In this document: one piece after another, positions 23,680-42,749 of the stretch
How positions within the stretch are numbered: the first letter of the stretch is position 1
How the letters are laid out: each line of letters starts with the position of its first letter
DNA from: Carboxylicivirga agarovorans
Lineage (GTDB): Bacteria > Bacteroidota > Bacteroidia > Bacteroidales > Marinilabiliaceae
Length of the DNA stretch: 64,000 nucleotides
NCBI RefSeq assembly: GCF_050589845.1
Contig: NZ_JBNGPA010000003.1
Coordinates: 77,720 to 141,719 of the forward strand
Direction: 5' to 3'
Made by a program: the position numbers and the translations under genes
Notes under the pieces: model-generated
What the model saw: only the letters and a program-made list of their open reading frames with translations
The model's database searches: none
Told to the model about the DNA's origin: nothing

Positions 23680-23926
23680 AAGTTACCATGATTACAATGA
23701 ATCTAATATTTCATTAAGGTACTTTCTTGATTAAGCCCTTTAATCCCGCCCTAATGGGCGCTTTAATAAAATCACCGACATGGTTTACTACCATCTTTCA
23801 CCAACATGCCATCTTTCTCTTTTTCAACACACAACAAACTCTAATACCCATATAGCACAGTTGAGCATCGGTAAATGGCACAGGGCTTGGATAAGAGATA
23901 ACATGTTCCACTTAAACCTCACTATC

Positions 23927-26885: not shown

Positions 26886-27086
26886 CAAAACTACAGCCTG
26901 TTATTGACAACTCGCTTAGTAATGATTGTATCAATGTGCAGGAATTCTGACATCAGTAACGCAGGCGGGGTACCCACTTGACGAAGTGAAGGATAGAAAG
27001 ATTTGAAGTGCGCAATGTAAATCTTTAAATCTTTCCCGGAACAAGGCAATAGTGGGTCGCTGAGTGCTGCCGTCAGCGGACTTTTT

Positions 27087-27119
27087 CTTCCCTTTTTTGA
27101 CTGTAGAAAAAAGGGAAAG
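27087..27119. terminator. hairpin TTCCCTTTTTT-gactgtag-AAAAAAGGGAA; candidate bidirectional terminator between convergent genes
   Basis: 11-bp stem with A/T runs on both sides. Lies in the convergent intergenic region. Confidence 0.4.
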
Positions 27120-27185
27120 CCCTTGCGGCTTGAGCAATTAAAAAAACAAATTATTGACTGCCCAAGTAGATTTACGATTGTAAGG

Positions 27186-27246
27186 GATTGACCAACACCT
27201 GGTATCCCGCAGAACCGTTGCGCTTTGCCCAGCGCTATAAAAATGC
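27186..27246. repeat. direct repeat copy 2 of the 26825..26885 element
   Basis: See copy 1. An inner repeat pair (TTATTGAC...GATTGTA at ~26900 and ~27150) is nested between the outer copies. Confidence 0.6.
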
Positions 27247-27374
27247 CAGACTACTGCTGCAGCGCGAATCCCTGCTCCAACTCTGAGGCTAATTAATTTC
27301 TTAAAAAGACTTCCGGTTTTAAGGGCAGGGAACCCATTGCAAAAAGAGAATTTACCGCAATGACAAAAGAAAAC

Positions 27375-28055
27375 CTAATAAACACTCATTGCCCCCCAAA
27401 GCTTGTCAAACTCCTTCTGATAGCTGTCAATTGCTTTTTTATCGTTGGTCTCAAGAATATTTTCCTGGTTAAACTGTGCAGCACTTCTTGTCCAGTTGTA
27501 ACTGCCGGTCAGCAATACCTCATCATCGAAGATAGCAAACTTATGGTGCATATGATGACTTGAATTGTCGACTTTCACACTGGCTCCTTTTCGCTGAAGA
27601 TATTCTATATCAGAACCTAAGTCGTTCGTTTTATCATCATCGGTTATTATTCTTACTTTAACGCCTTTGTTAATAGCATACTCCAGGCGATCCCTTATAT
27701 CATTGTCGCTGATGGTAAAAACACAAATATCAATTTTCCTTACAGCGTAACTGATCTGGGTAAGAATAGTAGATAAGCATTCCTGCCCCGGGCTAAAATA
27801 TGAGCGACAGTAAAAGCTTTGCCGCTCTTTCGGCAATATAAGCTTATTGGCTTCTTCCAGCCAGTCAATAACCTGAAGGTGTTTATAGTCACTGAAATGA
27901 TTCCGCGCTTCGTTAAAGACTTCGCTCCTGACACGATTCAGATCATGCTTACTTAGCTTCTTGTCACTGATGACAGATTTCAGGGCTTTCTTTTCTCCTT
28001 TGGTAAGAATTCTATCTTCAAGGGTTTGCTTTAAATAAGCTATTAGTTCTTTCAT
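27375..28055 (-). CDS. phospholipase D-family (single HKD motif) nuclease-like protein
   Basis: HHKFAIFDDEVLLTGSYNWT fits HxK(x4)D(x6)GSxN, the HKD signature of Nuc-type PLD nucleases. It has a ~90-aa helical N-terminal extension. Its ATG overlaps the stop of the upstream regulator by 4 bp (ATGA). Confidence 0.8.
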   Translation of the reverse strand: MKELIAYLKQTLEDRILTKGEKKALKSVISDKKLSKHDLNRVRSEVFNEARNHFSDYKHLQVIDWLEEANKLILPKERQSFYCRSYFSPGQECLSTILTQISYAVRKIDICVFTISDNDIRDRLEYAINKGVKVRIITDDDKTNDLGSDIEYLQRKGASVKVDNSSHHMHHKFAIFDDEVLLTGSYNWTRSAAQFNQENILETNDKKAIDSYQKEFDKLWGAMSVY

Positions 28056-28795
28056 AATTTATTTTGGATCGTTTTTTCAGTTAATCGGTATAGTTGTTCT
28101 TCCAGGCGATCAATTCGCTTTGATTCTGATTCACCTGAAAAACCGCCGATATATCTAATAACAGGATAATAATAATCAATATCATCAATATTTACCAGCA
28201 ATAAATCATAATCCACCTGTAAGATCAAAACAGTTTTGCCTGCTAATACTTTTAGCTTACTAATATAAATAGCACCACCTGTTTTAATCACATAATACTG
28301 ATCATTAGTAATGGATACCTGCTCTGTATCGACAATAATAATATCATTTTGCGTCATTGAATCGGGCATTGCTCTAAAGTCTCGAGGTGTGATATTAACA
28401 GCAACACATACGCCTGATCCCTCATTTAAAGGCATTTGCATACTATCAATCTCTACTTCATTATCCGACAACACTTTTTCAATATCGTGCACTGCAGGGC
28501 AAAAAGGGATGCTTTTTAACTCATAAACCAACTTACTTGAATTTTTAAATGTCGGCTCATTACCCACATCAAAATGATAAAGTTCATTTACGGTTAGCTC
28601 TTTATTGATCAGTTCATCGATCGTAATACTAAAATATTTAGCAACCCGATTAATTAAATCAATTTTAGGTTCTGCCCTCCCCTCTTCATATGAACCAACG
28701 CTAGCCCTTGATAAATCAAAGATTTCAGCAAATTCAGTCTGACTTATCTTTTGTATTGAACGTATCTTTCTAATATTACTTCCAAAATAACTCAT
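28052..28795 (-). CDS. XRE-family HTH transcriptional regulator with S24/LexA-like C-terminal domain
   Basis: N-terminal Cro/C1-type HTH (IRKIRSIQKISQTEFAEIFDLSRASVGSYEEGRAEP). C-terminal beta-rich domain of the LexA/CI peptidase S24 type. Catalytic residues were not verified. Confidence 0.65.
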   Translation of the reverse strand: MSYFGSNIRKIRSIQKISQTEFAEIFDLSRASVGSYEEGRAEPKIDLINRVAKYFSITIDELINKELTVNELYHFDVGNEPTFKNSSKLVYELKSIPFCPAVHDIEKVLSDNEVEIDSMQMPLNEGSGVCVAVNITPRDFRAMPDSMTQNDIIIVDTEQVSITNDQYYVIKTGGAIYISKLKVLAGKTVLILQVDYDLLLVNIDDIDYYYPVIRYIGGFSGESESKRIDRLEEQLYRLTEKTIQNKL

Positions 28796-28989
28796 AAATT
28801 ATTGCTAATTCTATTTGCACCAATAAAACATTTCGCTATATTTGCTAATGTGATTGTCAAAAGAACAAAAAAAACAATAGAAATGCTAACCAACCTAACT
28901 CTTTCTTATGATTTTAAATAACCTCCCTATGTTTAATGAGACAATATTTTTTTTAAATTCAAAACCCGAAAAATGATTAAACCACTCTA

Positions 28990-29388
28990 ATGATGGAAAA
29001 CTATTTTAAAAAAGTTAAGAATTACCTTTTGGAACTGGATTGCGAAGTAGTTAACGAAAACGAGAGCGAGGGCGTTCTTGTCGTTACTAAGCCCGAAGAA
29101 GGAATTGTCAATTTAGTTTTAGGTTGTGTCGACCCTCTCCTAATCATGGAGCAATTTATTTTTGAAATTAATGGGGATAACATGAGTGTGTTCAAGCAGT
29201 TACTGATGAAGAACCGGGACATTGTTCACGGCGCCTTTGTGCTCGACGAAACTGGTCACAAGGTCATATTCAGAGATACCCTTCAAATTGAAAACCTTGA
29301 TCTAAACGAATTAGAAGGTTCTATTAATTCATTAAGCCTTTTGCTTAGTGAGTATGCCAATGAAATTATTAAGTTTTCTACAAATTAG
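28990..29388 (+). CDS. small acidic protein upstream of pspA (possible PspA-associated / YbjN-like)
   Basis: 132 aa with no TM helix. It ends 8 bp before the pspA start. Family assignment is tentative. Confidence 0.35.
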   Translation: MMENYFKKVKNYLLELDCEVVNENESEGVLVVTKPEEGIVNLVLGCVDPLLIMEQFIFEINGDNMSVFKQLLMKNRDIVHGAFVLDETGHKVIFRDTLQIENLDLNELEGSINSLSLLLSEYANEIIKFSTN

Positions 29389-29396
29389 AGTAAGCC

Positions 29397-30110
29397 ATGA
29401 ACGTATTTAGTAGATTATTCAGAATAGGAAGTGCCGAGGCTCATTCGGCAATAGATAAGTTAGAAGATCCCATTAAAATGACCGAACAAGGTATTCGCGA
29501 TCTTAAAACAAACTTAGATGACAGCTTAAAAGCTTTGGCTGAGGTTAAAGCCTTATCTATACGTGCGAAAAACGACTACGAAAACAACCGTTCCCGCGCA
29601 GGCGAATACGAAAACAAAGCCATCCTTTTACTTAAAAAAGCGGAAAAAGGAGAATTAGCAGCTGAAGAAGCTGACCGCCTGGCAACAGAAGCCCTTACTA
29701 AAAAGGAGGAGTGCTTGAGCATGGCTTCACAAAAGCAAGGTGAAGTAACCCGCTTTGAACAGAATCTGGCGCAATTAGACAGCAACATCAAGAAGCTGCG
29801 CTCACAAATCAGCACATACGAAAACGAATTAAAGACGCTGAAAGCACGTGTTAAGGTCAGTAAAGCTACGAAGAGCATTAATAAGCAAATGGCACAGATC
29901 GACTCCGACAGCACCATTAGCATGCTCGAAAAAATGAAAGAAAAAGTTGACCAGGAAGAAGCATTGTCTGAAGCTTATGGTGAGATCGCCAATGAATCAA
30001 AGTCATTGGATGACGAAATTGATTCTGCCCTTGGAGGAAATAAAGCTGAAGCCGCTGAATCATTAGCCGAGCTAAAAGCTAAATTAGGTTTAGATAAAAA
30101 AGAAGAATAA
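29397..30110 (+). CDS. pspA: PspA/IM30 family protein (phage shock protein A)
   Basis: MNVFSRLFRIGSAEAHSAIDKLEDPIKMTEQGIRDLKTNLDDSLKALAEV... aligns along its whole length with E. coli PspA ([40 protein letters not shown]...). Coiled coil throughout. Confidence 0.9.
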   Translation: MNVFSRLFRIGSAEAHSAIDKLEDPIKMTEQGIRDLKTNLDDSLKALAEVKALSIRAKNDYENNRSRAGEYENKAILLLKKAEKGELAAEEADRLATEALTKKEECLSMASQKQGEVTRFEQNLAQLDSNIKKLRSQISTYENELKTLKARVKVSKATKSINKQMAQIDSDSTISMLEKMKEKVDQEEALSEAYGEIANESKSLDDEIDSALGGNKAEAAESLAELKAKLGLDKKEE

Positions 30111-30127
30111 TTAATAGTTAAAGGTTA

Positions 30128-30922
30128 ATGCCACTGGCATTAACCTTTTTTGTTCAATTGACAATCGTTGGTTTCGCTTATCCGGAACCAATAATAACCA
30201 ATCCAAATCCCTCTGTCATGAAGGAATTATTTGAAGCTGCCTTTTCAGGAGTAAACATCATCCCTACAGTACTGTTAATCCTCGTATTATTCTATTGGCT
30301 AATGGTGATCATTGGCGCAATGGATGTTGACTCGGTTGACTTTGATCTGGATGCTGATATTGACGTTGATGTAGATGTGGATGTCGACGTAGATGTGGAT
30401 GCTGATGTAGATGTGGATGCCGACATTGATGGCGCCGATTCTGCAGGAGAAGGCATTGGCTCGATAGCATTCCTAAACTCAATATTGGTCTTTTTTAACC
30501 TTGGTAAGATCCCATTTATGGTATGGCTGAGCTTTCTGATCTTCCCGATGTGGATCATATCCATATTGTTTAACCACTTTATGGGTAACAGCTCATTCTT
30601 ACTGGCATTAGTAGCATTGATACCAAACCTGGTTGTAAGTCTTATGGTTTCAAAAGTTCTTACAACACCCATTGCAGCGCTATTCGCCAGACTTAAAAAG
30701 AACAATGACGACCAGTTTAAATACACAGGTAAAATATGCACTGTGTTGATGCGTGCTACCCGCGATAGGTTTGGCCAGGCAGAAATAAACAGAAATGGCA
30801 ACATCTACCGTGTTAATATTCTTACACATGACGAGGTAATATTGGAAAAAGGCCAGACAGCCCTGATAATAGAATACCTACCCGAAAAGAAGTGTTATTT
30901 AGTCGAACCCTATAAAATTTAA
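30128..30922 (+). CDS. YqiJ/NfeD-like membrane protein with acidic (DV)n tract and C-terminal OB-fold
   Basis: Multiple TM helices. (DV/DA/DI)n tract DADIDVDVDVDVDVDVDADVDVDADIDGAD. C-terminal beta-rich segment (GKICTVLMRATRDRFGQAEINRNGNIYRVNILTHDEVILEKGQTALIIEY) is typical of NfeD-like domains. It lies immediately upstream of a flotillin gene, as in E. coli yqiJK and B. subtilis ydjH-ydjI. Confidence 0.6.
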   Translation: MPLALTFFVQLTIVGFAYPEPIITNPNPSVMKELFEAAFSGVNIIPTVLLILVLFYWLMVIIGAMDVDSVDFDLDADIDVDVDVDVDVDVDADVDVDADIDGADSAGEGIGSIAFLNSILVFFNLGKIPFMVWLSFLIFPMWIISILFNHFMGNSSFLLALVALIPNLVVSLMVSKVLTTPIAALFARLKKNNDDQFKYTGKICTVLMRATRDRFGQAEINRNGNIYRVNILTHDEVILEKGQTALIIEYLPEKKCYLVEPYKI

Positions 30923-30929
30923 AAGCATA

Positions 30930-33071
30930 ATGGAAATGATTCAATCTCTTGGCATAAGTGCCATTGTTTTTCTTGTCATTGTTATTATCGGTATTATATC
31001 GTTAATAATCAAAACTTACCGCAAAGCCACTCAAGGCCAGGCTATGGTGCGTACAGGTGCCGGCGGTGCAAAAGTAACCTTTACCGGTATGTTTGTCATT
31101 CCTATTCTTCACCGCATGGAGATTATGGATATCACCCTTAAAACGGTTGTTATTGAACGTATGGGCAAGGACGGTCTGATCTGTAAAGACAACATGCGGG
31201 CCGATATCAAAGTTGCTTTCTTTGTTCGCGTAAACAAAACCAGCGAAGATGTTATCCAGGTGGCTCAGTCAATTGGCTGTAACAGAGCATCTGATCAAAA
31301 GTCGCTGGTTGAGCTCTTTGACTCTAAATTCTCAGAGGCTCTTAAAACTGTTGGTAAGCAATTTGAGTTCGTTGAGTTATATAACTCACGTGAAAAGTTC
31401 AAGCATGAAATCCTCAATATCATTGGCACAGACCTGAATGGTTACATCCTTGATGACTGTGCCATTGACTTCCTGGAGCAAACGCCTCTCGAGTCATTGT
31501 CTGAAGACAACATCCTGGATTCAGAGGGTATCAAAAAGATTGTGGAGCTTACCGCCAAACAGAAGATCCTTTCTAACCAGATTGAGCGCGACAAGCAAAA
31601 GACAATTACCAAGCAAGATGTTGAGGCGCGTGAAACGGTATTGGAGCTGGAGCGTCAGTTAGCTGAGACAGAAGAAAATCAGAAGCGTGAAGTAGCTAAC
31701 ATCAAAGACCGCCAGGAAGCTGAAGTGAAAAAAGTGGCCGAAGAGCAACGCTTAATCGCTGAAAAAGCGCGCATTGCAACTGAAGAAGAAATCGCAGTGG
31801 CCGAAAAGAATAAGGAGCGCCAGGTTGTTATCGCCGATAAAAACCGTGAACGTGTTGAGGCGGTTGAAACAGAAGCTGTGGAACAAGAGCGTGAGCTTAA
31901 GTTAACAGAGCGTCAGCGCATCGTTACTCTTGCTCAGATTGAGAAGGAGAAGGAAGTGGAGATGCAGAAGAAGCAGATCCAGGAAGTGATTCGTGAGCGC
32001 GTAGAAGTTGAGAAAGCTACTGTTGCCGAGCAGGAAAAAATCAAGGACACGCAGGAGTTCGCTACTGCTGACAGGGCTAAGAAAGTGGCTATCACAAAAG
32101 CGGAAATGGATGCAGAAGAAGCATTTGTACGTGAAATCAAATCGGCCGAGGCTGCTAAAAACGCCGCAGAACACAATGCTAAAACTCGTTTGATTGATGC
32201 TGAAGCAGAGTTTGAGGCTGCCGGTAAGAAAGCCGAAGCCAGCAAAATTATGGCTGAAGCAAAAGCCGCCGAAGAAGCTGCCATCGGAGTTGCTGAAGCA
32301 CAGGTTATCGAAGCCAAGGCTGACGCTATGGAAAAACAAGGCCTTAACGAGGCTAAAGTAATGGAGATGAAAGCAGAGGCAGAAGCTAAAGGCAAAAAAG
32401 CCAAAGCTGTTGCTGAAGCTGAGTCCATTCAGCAAATTGGTTCATCGGAAGCAGAGGTTATCAAAGCTAAAGCGGAAGCCGAAGCGGAACGAGGACAAGC
32501 TGAAAACAAAGTACTGGACGAGCGCAATGCAGTTGAAGCCAAAGGCATTGAAGAGAAAGGTATGGCAATGAAGAAGCTGGATGCTGTTGGTCGCGACCAC
32601 GAAGAGTTTAAGCTGAAATTAGACATGCAAAAAGAGCTTGAGCTGGCACGCATCAATATCCAGAAAGGTATTGCTGACGCTCAGTCACAAGTGATTGCCG
32701 AAGCATTAAAAGCTGCTAACATCGATATCGTTGGTGGAGAAACAATGTTCTTCGATAAGATCATCGGTTCAATTACTCAAGGTAAGCAGGTTGATAAAGT
32801 GGTTAAGAACAGTGAAATCATCAGTGATATTAAGAATCACTTCTTCGATAGTTCTGACGGCAAAAGCTTTAAAGATCAGTTTGCCAGCTTTATCGATCAG
32901 TTTGGCATCTCATCTGAAGATGTGCGCAACCTAAGCATCAGTGCCCTGATAGGCCGTATGATGCAGGAGAACTCCGACGAGAAAACGGGTAGCATGCTTA
33001 GCAGCCTGAACGATATCGCTAAAAGCTTAGGCGTATCAAACAGCACCGCTAAAGCATTGGGCATCGTTTAA
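30930..33071 (+). CDS. flotillin / SPFH (band 7) domain protein, YqiK-like, with long Ala/Glu/Lys-rich coiled coil
   Basis: N-terminal TM helix, then SPFH core (GQAMVRTGAGGAKVTFTGMFVIPILHRMEIMDITLKTVVIER...). Low-complexity EA/KA coiled-coil region. 713 aa. Confidence 0.85.
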   Translation: MEMIQSLGISAIVFLVIVIIGIISLIIKTYRKATQGQAMVRTGAGGAKVTFTGMFVIPILHRMEIMDITLKTVVIERMGKDGLICKDNMRADIKVAFFVRVNKTSEDVIQVAQSIGCNRASDQKSLVELFDSKFSEALKTVGKQFEFVELYNSREKFKHEILNIIGTDLNGYILDDCAIDFLEQTPLESLSEDNILDSEGIKKIVELTAKQKILSNQIERDKQKTITKQDVEARETVLELERQLAETEENQKREVANIKDRQEAEVKKVAEEQRLIAEKARIATEEEIAVAEKNKERQVVIADKNRERVEAVETEAVEQERELKLTERQRIVTLAQIEKEKEVEMQKKQIQEVIRERVEVEKATVAEQEKIKDTQEFATADRAKKVAITKAEMDAEEAFVREIKSAEAAKNAAEHNAKTRLIDAEAEFEAAGKKAEASKIMAEAKAAEEAAIGVAEAQVIEAKADAMEKQGLNEAKVMEMKAEAEAKGKKAKAVAEAESIQQIGSSEAEVIKAKAEAEAERGQAENKVLDERNAVEAKGIEEKGMAMKKLDAVGRDHEEFKLKLDMQKELELARINIQKGIADAQSQVIAEALKAANIDIVGGETMFFDKIIGSITQGKQVDKVVKNSEIISDIKNHFFDSSDGKSFKDQFASFIDQFGISSEDVRNLSISALIGRMMQENSDEKTGSMLSSLNDIAKSLGVSNSTAKALGIV

Positions 33072-33082
33072 AACAAATACAT

Positions 33083-33113
33083 TAACGCTTCCCGGGTCAT
33101 TCGGGAAGCGTTA
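33083..33113 (+). terminator. rho-independent terminator-like hairpin (TAACGCTTCCCG-ggtcatt-CGGGAAGCGTTA) followed by a T-rich tract
   Basis: Perfect 12-bp stem, 7-nt loop, then ttcctacttttctgc. It lies 12 bp after the flotillin stop and 83 bp before the giant ATPase start. Confidence 0.55.
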
Positions 33114-33195
33114 TTCCTACTTTTCTGCAATAGTACAATTTCATATTGCCCCAATTGTCATGCTTTTTTTTCTTCATATCACTAACAATTGATTT

Positions 33196-36100
33196 ATGTC
33201 TGATAATCAAAACACCACAGATAAAAACATACAGCTTGAAGAAGGCACCTACGAAATCATCAAAAACAGATTACGTAAGAGTGCCGGAGAATTAGGTCAA
33301 AGGTTAGAGCAACTCAATACCTCACGTAAAGATGTGTTTGGCTCCATTGAAAGTACACTGGTCGCCACCGATCGTATCGGTACCGAAAACAACTGTACTC
33401 CCGCCGACATGGTTGCCCTGGGTAACACATTGCTTTTTGGTTATAATGTAACCATGGGATTAAAGACTAAAACTTCACTGGACGATGTGTTTAGTGTCTA
33501 CAACTTCAATGAGCACGCCTTTGACCAGAAGAATATGAACATCATTAATGACTCTCAGTTCATTAATGATTTCGACAACCTGTATGAGTATTATAAAGAA
33601 ACGCAGTTTAAGAAATTTGCAACAATCGGTCCTCATCTGTTTATGGTGTTTCAGACGGGGAAAAGTAAAGACGACATAAAAGCATTCAAATGGCTGATCA
33701 AAGGTGATCATTTAGAATATAAAGGCAACAGGAGTACACATGAATTTGTATTTCCCGATCAACATGAATTTAAGTGGGAAAAAGTAACTCGTGAACAGTA
33801 TGTATATGGCGAGCACCCGCATGTCTCCATCGAAGATAAGGTCTTTGTTGAAGCCGTTGGTGGAGATATCACTTTTAAGATAGAGGATAATACGGATTCT
33901 GGTTATGGTATATATGCCGAAGAGGTGGAGGTAAAAGACCAAACCCTTGATGATGCTGAGATGCATTATGCCATCATTGGTAACCTTATCATCATTCGCA
34001 TACTGCCCTATAAAGAGAATGAGTTCAGGTATTTCGTTTACAACTCAAAAATCCAGAAGGTCCAGCGCATCGATGCCCTGGAGGATTCATGCGTTCTTTT
34101 ACCGGATGATCAGGGACTGATCTTTGCCAATGGATATTATTTGCAGAATGGACAATTCAAGCTTTTCGACAGAGACATTAAAGGGTTAATGTTTGAGCGG
34201 AAGCTGGCTTCCATCAACGGAGAGGATTTTCTTTATACTTTTTACAATCAAGATATTGGTGCTTATGTATTGTTGATATACAACTTAATCAATCAACGCG
34301 TTGAAACACCAATGATCTGTAATGGATATTCATTGTTTGACAATGGTGAGTTATGCTACTTTAAAAAGCCCGATGAACCAACCCGTCATCATGTCATCCA
34401 GGTATGGCAAACACCCTTTATGACAGTCGAACACCAGGTGGCACCAACAAATAATTCACGTTTATACAAAATCGGCAATAAGGATGTTGTAAAAGCCATG
34501 GCTGAATGTAACGAAGTCATCCTGCTTGTTAATAAAGATGAGACCTATGCCGACATATACGGAGATCTGGTAAAACGCTGTACCGACGTTATTGACAGCT
34601 ATTACTGGCTATCTGAAGAAGATGCTTTTGATATTAAAACGCCGCTTACTGAAATTAAAGAATCGGCATTTTCGGCCATCGCCGAATATGAAAAAGTCAG
34701 AAACATTCGCAAGAATACCAAAGAACGGATCAAAGAGGTAAGCGACAAGGTTAATGAAATATTCAGCCACATATCCAAGCAGCAAATTGGAGATATTGAC
34801 CGCTACGTCGAATTACTGGCAGCACTGCGAACTGTCAGAGGTGAGGTAATTGGCCTGAAAGAACTGCGTTATGCGGATTTACCATACATCGAAGAACTGG
34901 AGAATAATGTCGAAGAGAAAACCGTTCGTTTATCACAGGATTGCGTCACATTTCTGCTCAGGGATGAAGCCCTTAATTCATACGAGGAAAAAGTCAATAA
35001 CATACGCGAGAATGTAGGCAAAATTGCTAAAGTCAGTGAAGCAGATGATCTATCAGACGAGATAATAAAACTGGCTGGCCAGCTGGAAATGCTTATTGAC
35101 ATAGTGAGCAACCTGAAAATTGAGGATGCCACTCAAACAACACAGATCATTAACAATATATCAGGGGTATATTCACAATTCAACCTGATAAAAACAGACC
35201 TTAAAAAGCAACGTAAAAGCCTGAGGGCTGTTGAAGCCAAAGCTGAATTCAACTCGCAGCTGAAGCTGGTTGAGCAAGGTATGCTAAATTACATCGACCT
35301 TTGCGACTCTCCGGGTAAAACAGATGAGTATTTATCCAAACTCATGGTTCAACTGGAAGAGCTGGAAGGTAAGTTCTCTGATTTTGATGAGTTTATGCCA
35401 ACCATTGCCGAGCGACGCGAGCAGGTCTACAATGCTTTTGAATCCAAAAAGCTTAGCCTGGTTGAGGAACGTAACCGCAAAACCACAGCTCTGCAATCAT
35501 CTGCCGAGCGCATTTTGAAAGCTATACGAAGTCGCGTATCCAAGTTTAAAGAGACCAGCGAGGTAAACGGCTACTTTGCGTCAGATCTGATGATTGAGAA
35601 AGTGCGCGATGTCATTACACAGCTTAAAGAGTTGGATGACAGCGTTAAGGCCGACGACCTGGAGAGTAAATTAAAGTCTTTAAAGGAAGAAACGATACGA
35701 CAGATCAAAGACCGCACTGAGCTGTTTGAGAACGGTGCCAACATCATTAAGTTTGGTAATCACAAGTTCTCTGTCAATACCCAGGCTTTGGAACTTTCAA
35801 TGGTCAATAAAGATGGAAGCATGTTCTACCACCTGACCGGAACAAACTTCTTTGAAGAAGTGAAAGACACAGAGTTTATCGCAACAAAAGATATTTGGAA
35901 CCAGCTCCTGCCCTCTGAAAACAATACTGTTTACAGGGCGGAATACCTGGCCTATGAAATATTCAATGCCTCTAAAAACAAAGCAGAAGGTCACCTGTCG
36001 ATTGCCGACCTGGCCGAATTAGATACAAAAGCCCTGGTAGAGCATGTTCAGAAAATAATGTCCTTGCGTTTTAGCGAAGGCTATTCAAAAGGAGTACATG

Positions 36101-38094
36101 ATATTGATACAGCCATTATCCTGAAACAACTTCTGGATGTATACAAAAATGCCGGCCTGCTTCGCTACCCTGCTGATGCAAGAGCAATGGCAGAGTACTT
36201 CTGGAAAGTATATTGCTCTGAAGATGTGCGATCAGATTTAAATAATAACCTGAAAGGTGCCGGGTTGATCATCAAGGTTTTCCCCGACACACATCAGTTC
36301 GATTATTTGCTGGATACTTTGGTTAAGATGCTTGAAGAATTTCAGGCGGCCGAACAACTATTTAATGAACAGAGCATTGAAGATGCAGCTCATTTCCTTT
36401 TCCACCAGATGCTGGAATCCGATGAATTCATCATCTCCAAGGCAGCCATCAGTCACATGGATGGATTTGTAGCATACTTAAGAAAAAACAGGGCTACAAA
36501 AACTTACGAAGAATCATTAAAGCCTTTATTAAAGGACCATCCCAACGCCTATCGCCTGATCACTAAATGGGTAAAAGCCTATTTGGATATGGAAGGTAAA
36601 CCGGCAGAATACCTGAATGAGATAAGCATCACCCTCTTACTTGATTCTAAATTGCGTAAAAAGCTGATCGATCAGCCTGTGTCATCTGAACTAAAAGGTT
36701 TAAAAGGATCGCATCAGTTGATCAGTGAGAATAAGTACCAGTTCCACTTTAATGCTTTTATGGCTAAGCTGACTGGCTTTAGCCGTTTGGTTGTGCCTAA
36801 GTTTGAGAAGTACAATATACTGAAGAAGCAACTGACAGATTCATTCTCAGAAGAACTGCGCCTGAATGAATTTAAACCCCGTGTATTGTCCTCATTTGTC
36901 AGGAACAAATTAATTGACAAAGTTTATTTTCCACTGATAGGTAATAACCTGGCCAAACAAATAGGTGCTGAGGGAGCCGGCAAACGAACTGATTTAATGG
37001 GCATGCTGTTGCTGATCTCTCCTCCGGGTTATGGTAAAACCACATTAATGGAGTACCTGGCAAGTCGCCTTGGCATCATATTCATGAAGATCAATGGCCC
37101 ATCCATTGGACACACCATTACTTCACTGGATCCTTCTGAAGCTGAAAATGCAGCAGCCAGGGAAGAGCTTGAAAAACTAAACCTGTCTTTTGAGATGGGC
37201 GACAATGTAATGATCTACCTGGATGATATTCAACATTGCAACCCTGAGTTCCTGCAGAAATTTATTTCACTTTGTGATGCACAGAGAAAGGTAGAAGGCG
37301 TATACAAAGGTAAAAGTAAAACCTACGACTTCAGAGGTAAAAAAGTATGCGTGGTAATGGCGGGTAATCCATACACAGAAAGTGGTGAGAAGTTTAAAAT
37401 TCCGGACATGTTAGCCAACAGGGCCGACATCTATAATATTGGTGACATAATCGGAGGGTCTGATGAAGAATTTAAGTTGAGCTACATTGAAAACTCCCTC
37501 ACCTCCAATCCTGTATTGAATAAGTTGGCTTCTAAAAGCCAGAAAGACTTATATACACTTATTTCCATCGCCCAAACAGGCAGTAAAGACGGACTTGAAT
37601 TTGAAGCATCACACACACCGGAGGAAGTCAATGAATATGTGACCGTACTTAAAAAGCTGTTGACAGCGCGTGATGTTATTCTGAAGGTGAACCTGGAATA
37701 TATCTCTTCAGCTGCTCAGGCCGATGAATACAGATCCGAGCCACCGTTTAAATTACAAGGCTCTTACAGGGATATGAATAAGATATCGGAGAAAATTTTG
37801 CCGATCATGAATGATCAGGAACTGGAAACATTGCTTTTGTCTCACTATCGCAATGAAGCACAGACACTGACAAGTGGCGCCGAAGCTAACATTCTTAAAT
37901 TTAAAGAGATATACGGTGTAATCACAGCCGAAGAAACGGAACGCTGGACTGAACTGAAAGAAACCTTTGTCAGAAATAATAAATTGAAGGGAATGGGTAG
38001 CGATAAGCAGGCTGCACATGTTCTGGTTCAGATGGAGGAAATTGCCAAAGGTGTATTCGGCATTAAGGATGAGATTGGTAAGAACAAGAATTAA
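33196..38094 (+). CDS. giant (1632 aa) protein with a single MoxR-type (AAA_5-like) AAA+ ATPase module near the C-terminus
   Basis: Uninterrupted 4.9-kb ORF. Walker A LLLISPPGYGKTTLMEYL. Walker B VMIYLDDIQHC. CVVMAGNPYTESGEKFKIPDMLANRADIY parallels the MoxR motif [23 protein letters not shown]. About 1200 aa of mixed alpha/beta and coiled-coil sequence precede the ATPase with no other P-loop. A degenerate GAEGAGKRT sits just upstream of the true P-loop. Confidence 0.85.
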   Translation: MSDNQNTTDKNIQLEEGTYEIIKNRLRKSAGELGQRLEQLNTSRKDVFGSIESTLVATDRIGTENNCTPADMVALGNTLLFGYNVTMGLKTKTSLDDVFSVYNFNEHAFDQKNMNIINDSQFINDFDNLYEYYKETQFKKFATIGPHLFMVFQTGKSKDDIKAFKWLIKGDHLEYKGNRSTHEFVFPDQHEFKWEKVTREQYVYGEHPHVSIEDKVFVEAVGGDITFKIEDNTDSGYGIYAEEVEVKDQTLDDAEMHYAIIGNLIIIRILPYKENEFRYFVYNSKIQKVQRIDALEDSCVLLPDDQGLIFANGYYLQNGQFKLFDRDIKGLMFERKLASINGEDFLYTFYNQDIGAYVLLIYNLINQRVETPMICNGYSLFDNGELCYFKKPDEPTRHHVIQVWQTPFMTVEHQVAPTNNSRLYKIGNKDVVKAMAECNEVILLVNKDETYADIYGDLVKRCTDVIDSYYWLSEEDAFDIKTPLTEIKESAFSAIAEYEKVRNIRKNTKERIKEVSDKVNEIFSHISKQQIGDIDRYVELLAALRTVRGEVIGLKELRYADLPYIEELENNVEEKTVRLSQDCVTFLLRDEALNSYEEKVNNIRENVGKIAKVSEADDLSDEIIKLAGQLEMLIDIVSNLKIEDATQTTQIINNISGVYSQFNLIKTDLKKQRKSLRAVEAKAEFNSQLKLVEQGMLNYIDLCDSPGKTDEYLSKLMVQLEELEGKFSDFDEFMPTIAERREQVYNAFESKKLSLVEERNRKTTALQSSAERILKAIRSRVSKFKETSEVNGYFASDLMIEKVRDVITQLKELDDSVKADDLESKLKSLKEETIRQIKDRTELFENGANIIKFGNHKFSVNTQALELSMVNKDGSMFYHLTGTNFFEEVKDTEFIATKDIWNQLLPSENNTVYRAEYLAYEIFNASKNKAEGHLSIADLAELDTKALVEHVQKIMSLRFSEGYSKGVHDIDTAIILKQLLDVYKNAGLLRYPADARAMAEYFWKVYCSEDVRSDLNNNLKGAGLIIKVFPDTHQFDYLLDTLVKMLEEFQAAEQLFNEQSIEDAAHFLFHQMLESDEFIISKAAISHMDGFVAYLRKNRATKTYEESLKPLLKDHPNAYRLITKWVKAYLDMEGKPAEYLNEISITLLLDSKLRKKLIDQPVSSELKGLKGSHQLISENKYQFHFNAFMAKLTGFSRLVVPKFEKYNILKKQLTDSFSEELRLNEFKPRVLSSFVRNKLIDKVYFPLIGNNLAKQIGAEGAGKRTDLMGMLLLISPPGYGKTTLMEYLASRLGIIFMKINGPSIGHTITSLDPSEAENAAAREELEKLNLSFEMGDNVMIYLDDIQHCNPEFLQKFISLCDAQRKVEGVYKGKSKTYDFRGKKVCVVMAGNPYTESGEKFKIPDMLANRADIYNIGDIIGGSDEEFKLSYIENSLTSNPVLNKLASKSQKDLYTLISIAQTGSKDGLEFEASHTPEEVNEYVTVLKKLLTARDVILKVNLEYISSAAQADEYRSEPPFKLQGSYRDMNKISEKILPIMNDQELETLLLSHYRNEAQTLTSGAEANILKFKEIYGVITAEETERWTELKETFVRNNKLKGMGSDKQAAHVLVQMEEIAKGVFGIKDEIGKNKN

Positions 38095-38112
38095 CGCAAT
38101 TAAAACAGAACA

Positions 38113-38526
38113 ATGGACTTTAGAAATTACTTTGATTCAGCAGAAGCACAACTGGCTTTATTTATTAAAATGGCCAAAGCAGATGGTGAAATAATACAGG
38201 CAGAAATGATGTTTTTAAAATTACTGGCCCACAAGCTGGAGATTAAAAGCAGTGATTTTGACGCCATATTGGATAACTATGAAAAATATAAGTATTTACC
38301 GCCTGCCAATGAGAAAGAGCGCTTTATGACTCTTTATATTCTTATCCAGATGATGAAAGTGGATCTGTCTATGAAGGAAGAAGAAGTGGAGTTTTGTCTT
38401 GAAATAGGCAAACGCCTTCATATAGATGACAATAAAATGAGAAGTATCATTGAGCTCTCGAAAGAACAGGAGAAGAAGGTAGTAGGCTACGAGGAGATCG
38501 AGAAACTTTTGATGCCTGTTATATAA
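38113..38526 (+). CDS. TerB-like (tellurite-resistance TerB / DjlA-N-like) small helical protein
   Basis: LALFIKMAKADGEIIQAEMMFLKLLAHKLEI and a second helical repeat resemble the TerB domain pattern (IAKADGxxxxxEl..l..lA..Lgl). It starts 18 bp after the giant gene's stop. Confidence 0.45.
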   Translation: MDFRNYFDSAEAQLALFIKMAKADGEIIQAEMMFLKLLAHKLEIKSSDFDAILDNYEKYKYLPPANEKERFMTLYILIQMMKVDLSMKEEEVEFCLEIGKRLHIDDNKMRSIIELSKEQEKKVVGYEEIEKLLMPVI

Positions 38527-38735
38527 GTCCGCTAAACAGCATTCAATTTAAATACTACTCAAGAGGCTGTTCCTGAGATAAAAGAACGGCCTCTGTGAGT
38601 CTTCTTTGGTCAGGCACCTGCCAATAACTTACTTCACTCCTCTTCGTTTTGCACTGGCCTTAATTACATGAGTAAGATTTTATTAATGCTCTTCTTTTTA
38701 TAATTTTACAAAAACACCACTAGCTAATTATTAAT

Positions 38736-39137
38736 ATGAACTGCCCAAGATGCCAGCACCCACTTGCTGTCACACATATTGACGATTGCAAAACAAGCAT
38801 TGAAGTTGACAAATGTCCAAACTGCAAAGGCGTTTGGTTCGATAAGGATGAGCTGAGTCAAATTGAAGGCATCATCGAACCAATGTTTATTGAGATAAGA
38901 GACATACCTGATAAGCAAGAACAGTTTGAAACGCTGCATTGCCCTAAATGTAACAATTCTCCCCGCCTGCAAAAAGCAATTCACCCGCGCGACAGTAAGG
39001 TCGTTATCGATTATTGCCCATATTGCGATGGCATTTGGCTCGACAAGGGTGAACTGGAAGCCATACAACAAGAAAATTTCATTATTACCATAGCAAAGAT
39101 CTTTACCTGCTTAAGTCGTATAAGATCACGTAAGTGA
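38736..39137 (+). CDS. tandem TFIIB-type zinc-ribbon protein, paralog of 8935..9327
   Basis: CPRCQH...CPNCKGVWFDKDELSQI and CPKCNN...CPYCDGIWLDKGELEAI. Roughly half the residues are identical to the 8935 copy along the full length. Confidence 0.7.
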   Translation: MNCPRCQHPLAVTHIDDCKTSIEVDKCPNCKGVWFDKDELSQIEGIIEPMFIEIRDIPDKQEQFETLHCPKCNNSPRLQKAIHPRDSKVVIDYCPYCDGIWLDKGELEAIQQENFIITIAKIFTCLSRIRSRK

Positions 39138-39327
39138 TCAGCTATTTCTCACATTCAGTAAATCCCGGATTTGCGTCTGTTCTCTTTTTTTTGGCAAACT
39201 ACCTTTTGCAGCAGTTAAATATGCCCAATATGCTGACAATCGTTGCATTTTGCAGGACGAAGCCAGGTTGGTCAATTTGTTTTGATACAGGGTTTTATCT
39301 ACATTCGGGTTTATCAAACCTTACAGC

Positions 39328-40962
39328 ATGAACCGAATTTGCCTACTTCTTGCCTTATTGCTTGTCTCTCAGTTCACAATACAGGCACAGGAAGTACCTC
39401 ATCATATCAGTAATGTGGCCATCTACGATTTTATGGATGAGCTGGCCAACAAGGGTATAATCGAAGTTAATTCGGCCATAAAACCCTATTCCCGTCTTAC
39501 CATTGCCAGGGCACTGCAAGAAGCCAACCATCACCCCTCACTCACTCAACGACAGCAAAAGGAGCTTGAGTTTTACCTAAAGGATTTCAACAAGGAATTA
39601 ATTGATGGAAAAGACTTCGATAAACGATTTGATCTCTGGTATTACACAGACTCCCTTTTTAAGCTCACAGTGAACCCGATTCTTGGAGGTCAGTTTTTTA
39701 ACAATGGCAATGCCACTGAATACCATCGTTGGGGAGGCGCCGAATTTTATGGCAGCATAGGCAAACACGTAGGGATTTACGGAAGCCTGAGAGACAACCA
39801 CGAATCACATTTTTTAGGTGGCAGTGATTATATAACCAAACGCCCCGGAGCTGTTTATAAAGGCGATGGTACGGCTAAAGATTACTCTGAAACAAGAGGA
39901 GGCATCACCTACTCGTGGAAATGGGGAAGCATTGGCCTGCATAAAGACCATGTAGCCTGGGGCAATGGCTACAGTGAAGCTATCATACAAAGCGGACGTG
40001 CACCTTCCTACGGCTATATTTCATTTAAAATGACGCCAACCAAATGGCTGGAATTTAATTATATGCACGGCTGGTTGGTAAGTGAAGTGATTGATTCGGT
40101 TCGCTCCTACCCTGTTTACGGTGATGACCGACGCATTTATGTCAACAAGTTCATTGCCTCCAACATGTTTACTGTCAAACCCATGAAGAAATTATACATT
40201 TCTTTCGGAAACTCGATCGTATATGCCGATACTGATTTCAACGCAGCCTTCGCTGTTCCTTTTTTATTCTATAAGTCGGCTGATCACACCTATAATTCAT
40301 GGGATAACTGGGTAGGTCAAAATGCTCAGATGTTTTTTGATATTAGCAGCCGCCAAATAAAGAACCTGCATTTATACACCTCAGTTTTTATTGATGAAAT
40401 TTCTTTAGAACGCATGTTTGATAAAGAAGAACAATCAAACCATGTGGCCATGAAGTTTGGAGCCAAGGTCACCGACCTCTTGCCCAATACTTCTTTAACA
40501 GCTGAATATACCAGGGTAAGACCCATGACTTACCAAAACTTTGTACCCAGCATAAATTATACGAGTAATAGTTTCTTCCTTGGTAGTTATATGGGTGATA
40601 ATTCAGAAGAGCTGTATCTGGCAGCTGGCTTCAAACCCATACGCGGACTTGACATTAATGCCAGCTATACTTTAGTTCGAAGAGGAAAAGATTACATGAA
40701 GATATTGAATGACGGAGAAATAGATGAGCATCCGGAGATCAATCCTGAACACGAACGACGTGGATTACCCTTTATTAACGAAGAACGATACAAAAACCAG
40801 AGCTTCACCTTTAAAGCTTCCTATCAGATCATTAATGATGGATTTGTCTTTGTTGAAGCCACCAAAAACAATATTAGCGGAGTTGACAGGGAGCTGTATA
40901 CAAATCCTTTTTACCTTGATGGGGATAACATCTTATCCTTTGGTATCAACTTTGGATTCTGA
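39328..40962 (+). CDS. capsule assembly Wzi family protein
   Basis: Signal peptide, then YDFMDELANKGIIEVNSAIKPYSRLTIARAL, which matches the conserved Wzi N-terminal motif. Beta-barrel-like Gly/aromatic-rich body. Confidence 0.6.
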   Translation: MNRICLLLALLLVSQFTIQAQEVPHHISNVAIYDFMDELANKGIIEVNSAIKPYSRLTIARALQEANHHPSLTQRQQKELEFYLKDFNKELIDGKDFDKRFDLWYYTDSLFKLTVNPILGGQFFNNGNATEYHRWGGAEFYGSIGKHVGIYGSLRDNHESHFLGGSDYITKRPGAVYKGDGTAKDYSETRGGITYSWKWGSIGLHKDHVAWGNGYSEAIIQSGRAPSYGYISFKMTPTKWLEFNYMHGWLVSEVIDSVRSYPVYGDDRRIYVNKFIASNMFTVKPMKKLYISFGNSIVYADTDFNAAFAVPFLFYKSADHTYNSWDNWVGQNAQMFFDISSRQIKNLHLYTSVFIDEISLERMFDKEEQSNHVAMKFGAKVTDLLPNTSLTAEYTRVRPMTYQNFVPSINYTSNSFFLGSYMGDNSEELYLAAGFKPIRGLDINASYTLVRRGKDYMKILNDGEIDEHPEINPEHERRGLPFINEERYKNQSFTFKASYQIINDGFVFVEATKNNISGVDRELYTNPFYLDGDNILSFGINFGF

Positions 40963-40998
40963 TATTTTTAATAATTTAACGGGCTTGAAACTGTAAAT

Positions 40999-42123
40999 AT
41001 GCAAGAAATAAGAATGGTGGATCTTCAGGCTCAGTATAAACGACTGAAACCTGAGATTGATGAGGCAATGGCCGATGTTATTGAGCAAACGGCTTTTATA
41101 AACGGCACCGCTGTTAAAACGTTCCAGGGCAACCTGGAAAAATACCTGAAAGTAAAGCATGTCATTCCCTGTGCCAACGGAACCGACGCACTGCAGGTGG
41201 CCCTTATGGCTCTTGGTTTAAAGGAGGGTGACGAGATCATAACCTCTACCTTTACTTTTATAGCCACAGTCGAAGTGATTGCCCTCTTAAAACTCAAACC
41301 TGTACTGGTTGATGTTGATCTGAATACCTTTATGCTTATACCGGAGCAGGTTGAAGAAGCTATAACTGAAAAAACAAAGGCCATTATCCCGGTGCACTTA
41401 TTCGGCCAGGGAGCTGATATGAACCGTTTAATGGAGATTGCACACAAGCATCATCTCAAAGTTATTGAAGACACCGCTCAGGCCATTGGCAGTAATTACC
41501 AGTACAACAAGCAGGTTCAGAAGCTTGGCACCATTGGTGACATAGGCTGTACGTCCTTTTTCCCATCTAAAAACCTTGGGTGCTTTGGTGATGGTGGAGC
41601 CTGTTTTACCAATGATGATGATCTGGCGGCTCAAATGAGAATGATCGTCAACCATGGTTCGGAAAAAAAATACCACCACAAGGTTATAGGCGTCAATTCT
41701 CGCCTCGATACACTGCAGGCATCAGTTTTAAACGTAAAATTAAGAGAGCTGGATGACTTTAATGATCGTCGGCGCAAGGCTGCTGATTTTTATGACGGCG
41801 CCTTTAAAGATCACAATGCCATTCAAATACCGACCAGAACGCAAGGGTGCGTTCATACTTTTCATCAATACACCCTTCGGGTTAAAGATGGTAAACGTGA
41901 TGAACTCCAGGCCTATCTGAAAGAAAAAAAGATTCCTTCAATGGTATATTATCCGGTGGCACTTCACCTGCAAGAAGCATTTGGGCATTTTATGAAAAAA
42001 ACGCATAACTTACCCAATGCCGAGCAACTATGTAAAGAAGTACTGTCTTTACCTATGCACACAGAGCTCTCCATTGAGCAACTAAATTATATTACGGACG
42101 CCATCCTGGCATTTTTTGAGTAA
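40999..42123 (+). CDS. DegT/DnrJ/EryC1/StrS family PLP-dependent sugar aminotransferase (WbpE-like)
   Basis: MVDLQAQYKRLKPEIDEAMADVIEQTAFINGTAVKTFQGNLEKYL...PCANGTDALQVALMALG is the canonical DegT N-terminus. Confidence 0.85.
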   Translation: MQEIRMVDLQAQYKRLKPEIDEAMADVIEQTAFINGTAVKTFQGNLEKYLKVKHVIPCANGTDALQVALMALGLKEGDEIITSTFTFIATVEVIALLKLKPVLVDVDLNTFMLIPEQVEEAITEKTKAIIPVHLFGQGADMNRLMEIAHKHHLKVIEDTAQAIGSNYQYNKQVQKLGTIGDIGCTSFFPSKNLGCFGDGGACFTNDDDLAAQMRMIVNHGSEKKYHHKVIGVNSRLDTLQASVLNVKLRELDDFNDRRRKAADFYDGAFKDHNAIQIPTRTQGCVHTFHQYTLRVKDGKRDELQAYLKEKKIPSMVYYPVALHLQEAFGHFMKKTHNLPNAEQLCKEVLSLPMHTELSIEQLNYITDAILAFFE

Positions 42124-42128
42124 CAAAT

Positions 42129-42713
42129 ATGAATGATCAAGACTATTTTTTTCATGAAACCGCTGTCATTGATGACAACTGCACTATTCATAAAGGTGTA
42201 AAAATCTGGCATTTCTCGCACATTATGTCAGGTTGTGAAATAGGTGAAAACTGCAACCTGGGACAAAATGTGGTTGTATCGCCAGATGTGAAGCTGGGCA
42301 AGAATGTCAAGGTGCAGAATAATGTATCTATTTATACAGGCGTCATTTGTGAAGACGATGTTTTTTTGGGTCCGTCAATGGTTTTTACCAATGTTACCAA
42401 CCCGCGAAGCGCCGTTAACCGACGTGGTCAATATCAAACGACCGTTGTTAAAAAAGGGGCTACTATTGGAGCCAACGCAACCATTGTTTGTGGTCATGAT
42501 ATTGGCGAATTTGCTTTTATTGGCGCGGGTGCGGTGGTCACTAAAACCATCCCGCCCTATGCCCTGGTGGTTGGTAATCCTTCACAGCAAATAGGCTGGA
42601 TGAGCGAGTATGGTCACCGTCTTGAATTCGATGCAGATGGTTTGGCCGTTTGCCCTGAAAGTAAAGAAAGATACAGACTAAGCAATGATACTGTTGAAAA
42701 AATAAACGATTAA
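42129..42713 (+). CDS. hexapeptide-repeat (left-handed beta-helix) sugar N-acetyltransferase (WbpD/PglD-like)
   Basis: Repeated [LIV]G-x4 hexapeptide units through residues 20-150. It lies 5 bp downstream of the aminotransferase gene. Confidence 0.8.
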   Translation: MNDQDYFFHETAVIDDNCTIHKGVKIWHFSHIMSGCEIGENCNLGQNVVVSPDVKLGKNVKVQNNVSIYTGVICEDDVFLGPSMVFTNVTNPRSAVNRRGQYQTTVVKKGATIGANATIVCGHDIGEFAFIGAGAVVTKTIPPYALVVGNPSQQIGWMSEYGHRLEFDADGLAVCPESKERYRLSNDTVEKIND

Positions 42714-42749
42714 ATCAATACAAACCATCTGAATAATAAAACCTCAACT

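Follow-up and report, generated by a model that had tools for sequence, protein, structure and literature searches.

In this study, a 64,000-nucleotide stretch of DNA from Carboxylicivirga agarovorans (Bacteroidota, Marinilabiliales; assembly GCF_050589845.1, contig NZ_JBNGPA010000003.1, positions 77,720 to 141,719 of the forward strand; hereafter the window) was analyzed for a gene cluster that includes a giant ATPase. Gene comparison provides good support for regarding this locus as one instance of a conserved membrane-maintenance module. The module consists of five in-line genes on the plus strand, encoding a CesT/Tir-like chaperone (132 amino acids (aa), 28990-29388), PspA/IM30 of the ESCRT-III superfamily (237 aa, 29397-30110), a YqiJ/YuaF (NfeD-like) membrane protein (30218-30922), a YqiK-type flotillin (713 aa, 30930-33071), and a giant soluble DUF3686-DUF7902-AAA+ ATPase (1632 aa, 33196-38094). 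The conserved unit is layered. Its core is the triad of YqiJ-like protein, flotillin, and ATPase; the Bacteroidota extension adds the CesT/Tir-like and PspA pair and a divergent helix-turn-helix (HTH)/S24-like regulator, often with a phospholipase D (PLD)-like hydrolase; and a TerB-like gene is a local add-on. The initial annotation described a module of seven co-directional open reading frames (ORFs), and all seven are present at the coordinates that it gave, with gaps of 8, 17, 7, 124, 18, and 209 bp. Five of these genes are conserved, whereas conservation does not extend to the zinc-ribbon gene and largely fails for the TerB-like gene, and two divergent minus-strand genes, for the HTH/S24-like regulator and the PLD-like hydrolase, had been missed. 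On balance, we favor with moderate confidence the explanation that the locus is a conserved membrane module in which the ATPase remodels flotillin assemblies and perhaps also those of PspA.

The evidence for this comes mainly from the gene neighborhood. The ATPase family is large: a search with the N-terminal 700 residues gave at least 922 clusters at 50% identity, and more than 588 species-representative genomes hold a relative. Flavobacterium, Bacteroides, Maribacter, and Hymenobacter are among the carrier genera. Synteny was surveyed in 80 species-representative loci with 10-kb flanks from Bacteroidota, Planctomycetota, Verrucomicrobiota, Desulfobacterota, Kiritimatiellota, and Bacillota, and neighbors were detected by searching six-frame ORFs with the window proteins, using phmmer and then two rounds of hidden Markov models (HMMs). 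Flotillin and YqiJ-like genes were counted in the 62 loci whose sequence reached 3.5 kb or more upstream, and PspA, CesT, and HTH genes in the 60 loci where it reached at least 6.5 kb. In 59 of 62 loci (95%), the gene directly upstream of the ATPase gene, in the same orientation, encodes a flotillin homologue, and a YqiJ-like gene was detectable upstream in 54 of 62 (87%). PspA was found near the ATPase in 21 of 60 loci (35%), exclusively in Bacteroidota (21 of 27). These counts show that the adjacency of the giant ATPase gene to the flotillin, NfeD-like, and PspA genes, noted earlier in this one genome, is conserved and not due to chance. In two Planctomycetota loci (L024 and L078) PspA is directly downstream of the ATPase, in L013 PspA and PLD are on the opposite strand, and in two Verrucomicrobiota loci (L080 and L084) PLD is downstream of the ATPase. 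Because the linkage of PspA and PLD to the triad survives such repositioning, we believe that it is functional rather than inherited.

The ATPase thus tracks flotillin and NfeD-like genes far more than PspA, and gene context therefore suggests the flotillin assembly, and not PspA, as its primary client. The initial annotation had proposed an AAA+ motor acting on PspA/flotillin assemblies; the context favors flotillin over PspA (95% vs 35%). No further widely recurring neighbor family was found around the ATPase in the surveyed loci.

An operon of this kind is already known from comparative genomics. An operon of CesT/Tir-PspA with band-7/flotillin, YqiJ/YuaF, and a "novel AAA+ ATPase" was reported by Popp, Ravi et al. 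(mSystems 2024, bioRxiv 2020; PMC11237479). For example, it is found in Dokdonia donghaensis DSW-1 (ANH61663.1), and Table S3 of that paper lists the divergent "<-cHTH+Protease"; the same work described PLD in some Proteobacteria versions and abbreviated flotillin-YqiJ(-ATPase) operons across bacteria and archaea, and it already proposed a comparison with ESCRT-III/Vps4 and a chaperone-like role in membrane dynamics (PMC11237479). The window shares with that operon its gene families, their order, the divergent HTH and protease regulator, the phylum, and the proposed role, with five families in one co-directional cluster and the DUF3686-type ATPase last. The view that the arrangement had not been described must therefore be given up, and the locus is a further member of a published operon class, a refinement rather than a discovery. 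The window differs in that a TerB-like gene follows that of the ATPase; the paper makes no mention of TerB. The PLD partner, reported there from Proteobacteria, occurs here in Bacteroidota and Verrucomicrobiota. The paper (PMC11237479) holds no quantitative census, no assignment of the AAA+ clade, and no experimental data. What is new here is the tie of the ATPase to flotillin/NfeD genes, the predicted MoxR-type fold like that of NorQ and CbbQ, the stem-loop that recurs across phyla, and the finding that the name "DNA repair" is not supported by gene context.

The class bears on the question of how flotillin and PspA assemblies are remodeled or taken apart. A soluble AAA+ protein of 1600-1900 residues, encoded nearly always next to flotillin/NfeD genes in hundreds of species and at least six phyla, and in Bacteroidota also beside PspA, is an obvious candidate remodeler. 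The comparison sharpens the published hypothesis: flotillin would be the primary partner, the motor would be MoxR-like and not Vps4-like, expression may be graded, and two genes are removed from the module.

Several known systems resemble parts of the locus. The E. coli yqiJ-yqiK and B. subtilis yuaF-floT loci (PMC2636767) share the YqiK/YqiJ homology and the gene order, whereas the E. coli K-12 yqiJ-yqiK locus is without ATPase, PspA, and CesT genes, and the window flotillin is 160 residues longer. In the B. subtilis pspA-ydjGHI operon, PspA is also encoded together with an SPFH protein and membrane anchors, with a terminator after pspA (PMC8581546), and the membrane recruitment of PspA there depends on the SPFH protein (PMC8581546). 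However, YdjI is a soluble SPFH protein and not a YqiK-type flotillin, and that operon has no AAA+ ATPase and no CesT-like chaperone. The initial annotation described the operon as including an NfeD-like protein. This was mistaken: YdjG combines zinc ribbons, an NTF2-like domain, and a transmembrane (TM) segment, YdjH is a TPM-domain protein, and neither is NfeD-like (PMC11237479). In ESCRT-III/Vps4 and HflK/C-FtsH, as in the window, genetic coupling joins an AAA+ machine to a polymer or cage bound to the membrane; the corresponding parts are PspA, which belongs to the ESCRT-III superfamily, and flotillin, which is an SPFH protein. SPFH proteins assemble into domed rings on membranes (PMC12624060), and the SPFH dome HflK/C works with the AAA+ protease FtsH (PMC13220708).

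According to Pfam, the giant ATPase consists of DUF3686 (aa 32-470, E=3e-186), DUF7902 (aa 591-675), a helical middle part, and one AAA+ module, whose Walker A motif is ISPPGYGKT (aa 1274-1282). For DUF3686, a beta-propeller has been proposed in the literature. No TM segment was found in the protein. The residues of Walker A, Walker B, and the sensors do not vary among 35-38 diverse sequences of the family, and the DUF3686-DUF7902-AAA architecture is the same across phyla. C-terminal extensions of 60-350 residues were seen in the ATPases of Planctomycetota and Verrucomicrobiota, and a Desulfobacterales ATPase (L015:9971-15688) ends in ankyrin repeats.

The initial annotation described one MoxR-like ATPase module. 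The module is indeed single and its predicted fold is closest to MoxR proteins, whereas no MoxR profile recognized it: Pfam gave weak and similar scores for AAA (29 bits), AAA_5 (28 bits), AAA_22, and RuvB_N, and no match to AAA_3 (MoxR). Sequence and profile searches of the PDB with the AAA region covered just about 40 P-loop residues of p97, Cdc48, Rix7, and RuvB; matches restricted to the P-loop cannot assign a clade, and clade placement by sequence was therefore dropped. In JGI records, two homologues of the ATPase are labeled "MoxR-like ATPase". The predicted model of the AAA+ module was closest to the MoxR-type ATPases NorQ and CbbQ (PDB 9qh4, 6l1q) and contains a predicted pre-sensor-1 beta-hairpin, so a MoxR-type module is supported by predicted structure, with a modest margin. 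NorQ and CbbQ are stand-alone ATPases of approximately 260 residues with a von Willebrand factor A (VWA) partner (NorD, CbbO), whereas the AAA+ module of the window is the C-terminal quarter of a 1632-aa protein, and its Walker A region is nearer the classical p97/Cdc48 sequence.

We speculated that the module works as follows. The HTH/S24-like repressor would keep the operon off until a stress signal arrives. The CesT-like chaperone may hold PspA, and its release would let PspA polymerize on the damaged membrane. YqiJ and flotillin would form an SPFH dome or microdomain at the inner membrane, and the giant ATPase would dock on this flotillin/YqiJ assembly through its large N-terminal scaffold, predicted to be beta-rich and helical. 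Its MoxR-like AAA+ ring, presumably a hexamer, would then use ATP to drive the assembly, remodeling, or disassembly of the flotillin assembly, and PspA polymers may be an additional substrate where the PspA pair is present. Hairpins after the pspA and flotillin genes may grade the expression in the order PspA, YqiJ/flotillin, ATPase. Because the ATPase is soluble and is encoded right after flotillin/YqiJ, and because SPFH precedents exist, we regard the flotillin assembly as the primary docking site and the likely substrate.

A bolder version makes the DUF3686 ATPase the dedicated motor of bacterial flotillin domes, a counterpart of Vps4 built on a MoxR-type ring, which also turns over PspA in Bacteroidota and some Planctomycetota. 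We put this forward only tentatively and consider it rather doubtful. If it were true, SPFH and ESCRT-III systems would be physically coupled, and the "missing" bacterial ATPase for PspA disassembly would be supplied; according to a 2025 review, a Vps4-like ATPase for PspA appears to be absent in bacteria (PMC7619361).

As the main alternative, flotillin/YqiJ would do no more than recruit or confine the ATPase, which would act on another membrane client as a MoxR-type chaperone of maturation or quality control, while flotillin and PspA are not themselves remodeled. Known MoxR ATPases (CbbQ, NorQ, RavA) mature or remodel specific client complexes, and the MoxR-like fold predicted for the ATPase would suit such a role, as would the variable C-terminal protein-binding modules, for example the ankyrin repeats of Desulfobacterales. 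HflK/C with FtsH provides a precedent (PMC13220708). However, no conserved third-party client gene was found in the neighborhood, and the near-obligate linkage is to flotillin/YqiJ alone; we judged this alternative unlikely.

Several observations weigh against an ATPase that remodels flotillin. MoxR-type ATPases normally pair with a VWA/MIDAS (metal ion-dependent adhesion site) partner, and none was identified among the recurrent neighbors, of which no generic VWA profile scan was made; this also counts against the maturation of another client. A PDB sequence search with ATPase residues 1-1200 found no relative for the N-terminal part. The literature search on DUF3686 returned no paper naming the domain and no experiment on any DUF3686 protein. 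An ATPase-adjacent flotillin was missing in 3 of the 62 loci (L019, L026, and L042). AlphaFold2 (AF2) prediction of the full flotillin, with 22 homologues in support, gave a confidence (pLDDT) of 56, with the SPFH region below 50, too poor for a fold search, and the assignment was based on homology to E. coli YqiK instead. In the S24-like region of the divergent regulator, a conserved catalytic Ser/Lys was not seen in a crude 25-sequence alignment, and for this reason we make no claim of autocleavage.

One VWA-type candidate was weighed and rejected. Just upstream of the module, 23780-26830 encodes a 1016-aa protein with VIT and DUF2135 domains, and a homologue of this VIT-domain protein occurs in none of the 85 other loci. 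In the Pontibacter locus L001, a VWA protein is encoded approximately 5 kb upstream.

Public records name proteins of the ATPase family "DNA repair ATPase" or "ATPase involved in DNA repair", and the first label stems from the Pfam description of DUF3686. Taken literally, the giant protein would serve in DNA repair; the LexA-like neighbor might provide an SOS-like control and a Nuc-like PLD nuclease might be the partner of the ATPase, and the membrane genes would be unrelated to it. The weak P-loop matches to RuvB_N, the S24-like region of the divergent regulator, and the fact that the single-HKD PLD fold includes nucleases would agree with this. However, the RuvB likeness covers approximately 50 P-loop residues at 19-22 bits, against family cut-offs of 282-299; no DNA-repair gene recurs nearby, no paper supporting the name was found, and flotillin accompanies the ATPase in 95% of loci from six phyla. 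We therefore regard this explanation as very improbable, and the name is probably misleading, since the neighborhoods seen in six phyla indicate a membrane/flotillin role.

The flotillin assignment of the initial annotation is correct in substance, although the HMM check with Band_7 and Flot came out blank. Neither Pfam family gave a match even at E=10, NCBIfam did not recognize the protein, and a PDB profile search returned a single weak coiled-coil match to QmcA (E=0.014). Against E. coli YqiK, in contrast, the homology is unambiguous: BLASTP gave E=1e-47 with 33% identity (residues 4-444 vs 8-438), and hhalign gave a probability of 99.9 with E=2.6e-36. The protein has an N-terminal TM helix, an SPFH region, a long E/A-rich coiled coil, and a C-terminal region, and the part aligned to YqiK spans the first three of these. 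NCBI and JGI name it "flotillin family protein" and "YqiK".

The YqiJ-like ORF ends 7 bp ahead of the flotillin start, as expected of an NfeD/YqiJ operon partner. Its assignment as YqiJ/NfeD-like has weak support: BLASTP aligned 169 aa with E. coli YqiJ at 24% identity (E=2e-5), a stretch that takes in the C-terminal beta domain, whereas the best Pfam result was just YqiJ_N at E=0.14, and the family HMMs of Pfam and NCBIfam did not recognize the protein. The ORF was listed from 30128. Because all orthologues begin at its Met31 ("MKELF..."), the start of the gene was revised to 30218, and the listed ORF probably opens 30 codons too early. Four hydrophobic segments are present in the full 264-aa ORF and three within the revised protein. 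After the revision, the gap between pspA and yqiJ is approximately 107 bp and holds the hairpin at 30120-30148. A conserved, strongly acidic (D-x)n loop, DVDVDVDVDVDADVDVDADID, is encoded at 30320-30440 (residues ~65-105 of the YqiJ-like protein) and is longer in Carboxylicivirga; such loops of YqiJ-like proteins could bind cations.

The intercistronic stem-loop 3' of the flotillin gene (33083-33113, plus strand) is real, with a stem of 13 bp, a folding energy of -21.2 kcal/mol, and z=-5.0, and it may act as an attenuator, a terminator, or a 3'-end stabilizer. In many other phyla, too, the flotillin stop codon is closely followed by a strong stem-loop, of unrelated sequence. Hairpins of at least -20 kcal/mol strength were found in 62% of 34 flotillin-ATPase gaps and in 22% of 369 control gaps, which were other co-directional gaps of the same loci (Mann-Whitney p=7e-6). 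Such recurrence supports the earlier suggestion that this hairpin divides the operon or attenuates its expression. In Bacillota and some Planctomycetota, the flotillin and ATPase genes abut or overlap, so co-transcription of the two is possible. A second terminator-like hairpin, a 13-bp stem followed by TTTTGTT, lies directly 3' of pspA (30120-30148, plus strand; RNA fold -19.4 kcal/mol, z=-4.0). It is clade-specific: equivalents are present in Carboxylicivirga L005 and L036, and it is not universal. An Rfam scan of 27000-40000 gave no match. Together, the two hairpins suggest a graded expression in which PspA would exceed YqiJ/flotillin and these would exceed the ATPase, and a pattern of this kind would fit a catalytic motor working on stoichiometric scaffolds. 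B. subtilis likewise has a terminator that separates pspA from ydjG, and its PspA is far more abundant (PMC8581546).

In Bacteroidota, the core triad is extended by CesT, PspA, and the divergent genes. The first gene of the window cluster had been described only as a small acidic protein. It is present and encodes 23 acidic and 10 basic residues, and its family can now be given as CesT/Tir-like (PF22550), which makes it a putative chaperone: CesT_Tir_1 matched over the full length with 189.8 bits against a cut-off of 27 (E=2.2e-56). Of 27 Bacteroidota loci, 19 have CesT together with PspA. The PspA assignment was borne out by Pfam PspA_IM30 (149.6 bits, cut-off 33.9, residues 2-229, E=1.3e-43) and by an end-to-end alignment to E. 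coli PspA (29% identity, E=5e-18); the alignment to E. coli YjfJ was weaker (E=4e-7). The TIGR02977 equivalog model scored it at 62 bits against a cut-off of 243, and by that model it is no orthologue of E. coli PspA.

On the minus strand, 28052-28795 encodes an XRE-family HTH regulator of 247 aa (Pfam HTH_3, E=1.5e-9) with a C-terminal S24 (LexA/cI)-like region. The Peptidase_S24 match (E=5.5e-4) is under the gathering score, and a PDSM motif is present in the S24-like region of the window protein. Among the Bacteroidota loci, 19 of 27 have a homologue of the regulator in divergent orientation upstream of CesT-PspA. Co-transcribed behind it is the gene of a PLD-like single-HKD hydrolase (226 aa, 27375-28055, minus strand; Pfam PLDc_2, E=1.9e-31), in which the HxKx4D and GSxN motifs are visible. 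The same pair of genes is upstream of the operon in Pontibacter and in another Carboxylicivirga, and PLD homologues, which occupy three different positions, were present in 9 of 85 loci.

The intergenic region between the regulator and the CesT gene (28796-28989) may hold the control elements. The Bacteroides/Flavobacterium promoter consensus is TTTG-N19-21-TAnnTTTG. Read off the sequence, a putative promoter-like element on the plus strand at 28814-28844, TTTG-N19-TATATTTG, appears to fit this Bacteroidota consensus; TTTG is at 28814-28817 and TATATTTG at 28837-28844. In addition, TATATTTGCTAATG is invariant across the intergenic regions of three Carboxylicivirga species, and three copies of TGCTAA(T), approximately 40 bp apart, are kept in the same number of species of the genus. 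These repeats could be operators for the divergent HTH regulator.

The two genes 3' of the ATPase gene have a different history. The TerB-like protein (137 aa, 38113-38526, plus strand) scored 36.6 bits against Pfam TerB (cut-off 24.4, E=6.4e-9), above the gathering score, whereas the best stretch is confined to positions 76-116 of the 118 in the profile and thus to its C-terminal third. NCBI names the orthologue in Carboxylicivirga M1479 "TerB family". The gene is 16-18 bp 3' of the ATPase gene in Carboxylicivirga L036 (M1479) and L090, a metagenome-assembled genome (MAG), and downstream of it after a 250-bp gap in Labilibacter marinus (L004). In the surveyed loci, it stands behind the ATPase gene in these two genera only, it was present in 1 of 80 species-representative loci (L036), and it is missing in Carboxylicivirga L005, whose ATPase is 81% identical. 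The family has 12 detectable members, and those with 65-71% identity sit in unrelated contexts. A metagenome scan for the protein returned one 1.3-kb contig. The TerB-like gene is thus a recent, Marinilabiliales-specific passenger or accessory, a lineage-specific add-on and not part of the core. A lone TerB-like paralogue with 65% identity (L089:10001-13376) adjoins a TIR-domain STAND NTPase, a defense-like gene.

The tandem TFIIB-type zinc-ribbon protein (133 aa, 38736-39137, plus strand; two copies of Pfam Zn_ribbon_TFIIB, E=9e-25) has no homologue in any of the 85 other surveyed loci, and it follows the ATPase gene in none of 80 genomes, including species with 81-93% identity. In close Carboxylicivirga relatives, other, unrelated genes follow the TerB-like gene, and the spacers around the zinc-ribbon gene are 209 bp before and 190 bp after. 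It is an unrelated neighbor. A 65-aa ORF at 39134-39331 was considered as evidence of translational coupling of the zinc-ribbon gene to downstream genes and was rejected, because the ORF looks spurious.

These results speak against the arrangement in which the giant ATPase and TerB-like genes sit between the flotillin and zinc-ribbon genes as parts of a classical set, and against the larger idea of one seven-gene machine, including the TerB-like and zinc-ribbon proteins, whose motor acts on PspA as Vps4 does on ESCRT-III. All seven genes are co-directional, and the TerB-like gene follows the ATPase gene by 18 bp and is kept in 3-4 Carboxylicivirga genomes and in Labilibacter. Zinc-ribbon proteins such as YdjG accompany PspA in Firmicutes (PMC11237479), and bacteria have no known Vps4 equivalent for PspA (PMC7619361), all of which would agree with the idea. 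We nevertheless consider it improbable: besides the absence of the zinc-ribbon gene from every other locus, where the closest relatives have unrelated genes instead, and the rarity of the TerB-like gene, whose nearest homologues elsewhere stand alone, approximately 65% of ATPase loci and most phyla have no PspA nearby.

Defense islands commonly contain large ATPases, PLD/HKD effectors, and cI-like regulators, and the TerB-like paralogue of L089 stands beside a TIR-STAND NTPase. The locus could accordingly be read as an anti-phage or abortive-infection island, a membrane sensor/effector system with a cI-like repressor, a PLD nuclease or lipase as effector, and a large NTPase. However, PADLOC gave no meaningful match for the seven proteins, with coiled-coil noise for PspA and E-values of 1e-3 or weaker for the others, and the genes on either side have housekeeping or polysaccharide functions. 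Within families, the conservation of the module is broad and vertical, whereas defense genes are patchy, and PLD is present in a minority of loci. We give hardly any credence to a defense function, and the membrane module remains our preferred explanation.

A polysaccharide-type cluster without relation to the module follows the zinc-ribbon gene (39328-44039), encoding a weakly Wzi-like 544-aa protein, a DegT-family aminotransferase, a hexapeptide acyltransferase, and a UDP-glucose/GDP-mannose dehydrogenase. The sequence behind the ATPase gene differs in other loci. In three Bacteroidota MAGs (L009, L033, and L046), it holds DUF4178-like, YjfL/DUF350-like, and spermidine-synthase-like genes, which are the polyamine-linked PspA context of PMC11237479, here joined to the flotillin-ATPase triad. 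In Pontibacter sp. SGAir0037 (L001:15250-24971), an integrase, two group II intron reverse transcriptases, and IS110/DDE transposases follow the ATPase gene, and the downstream boundary of the module in this strain is a mobile-element hotspot.

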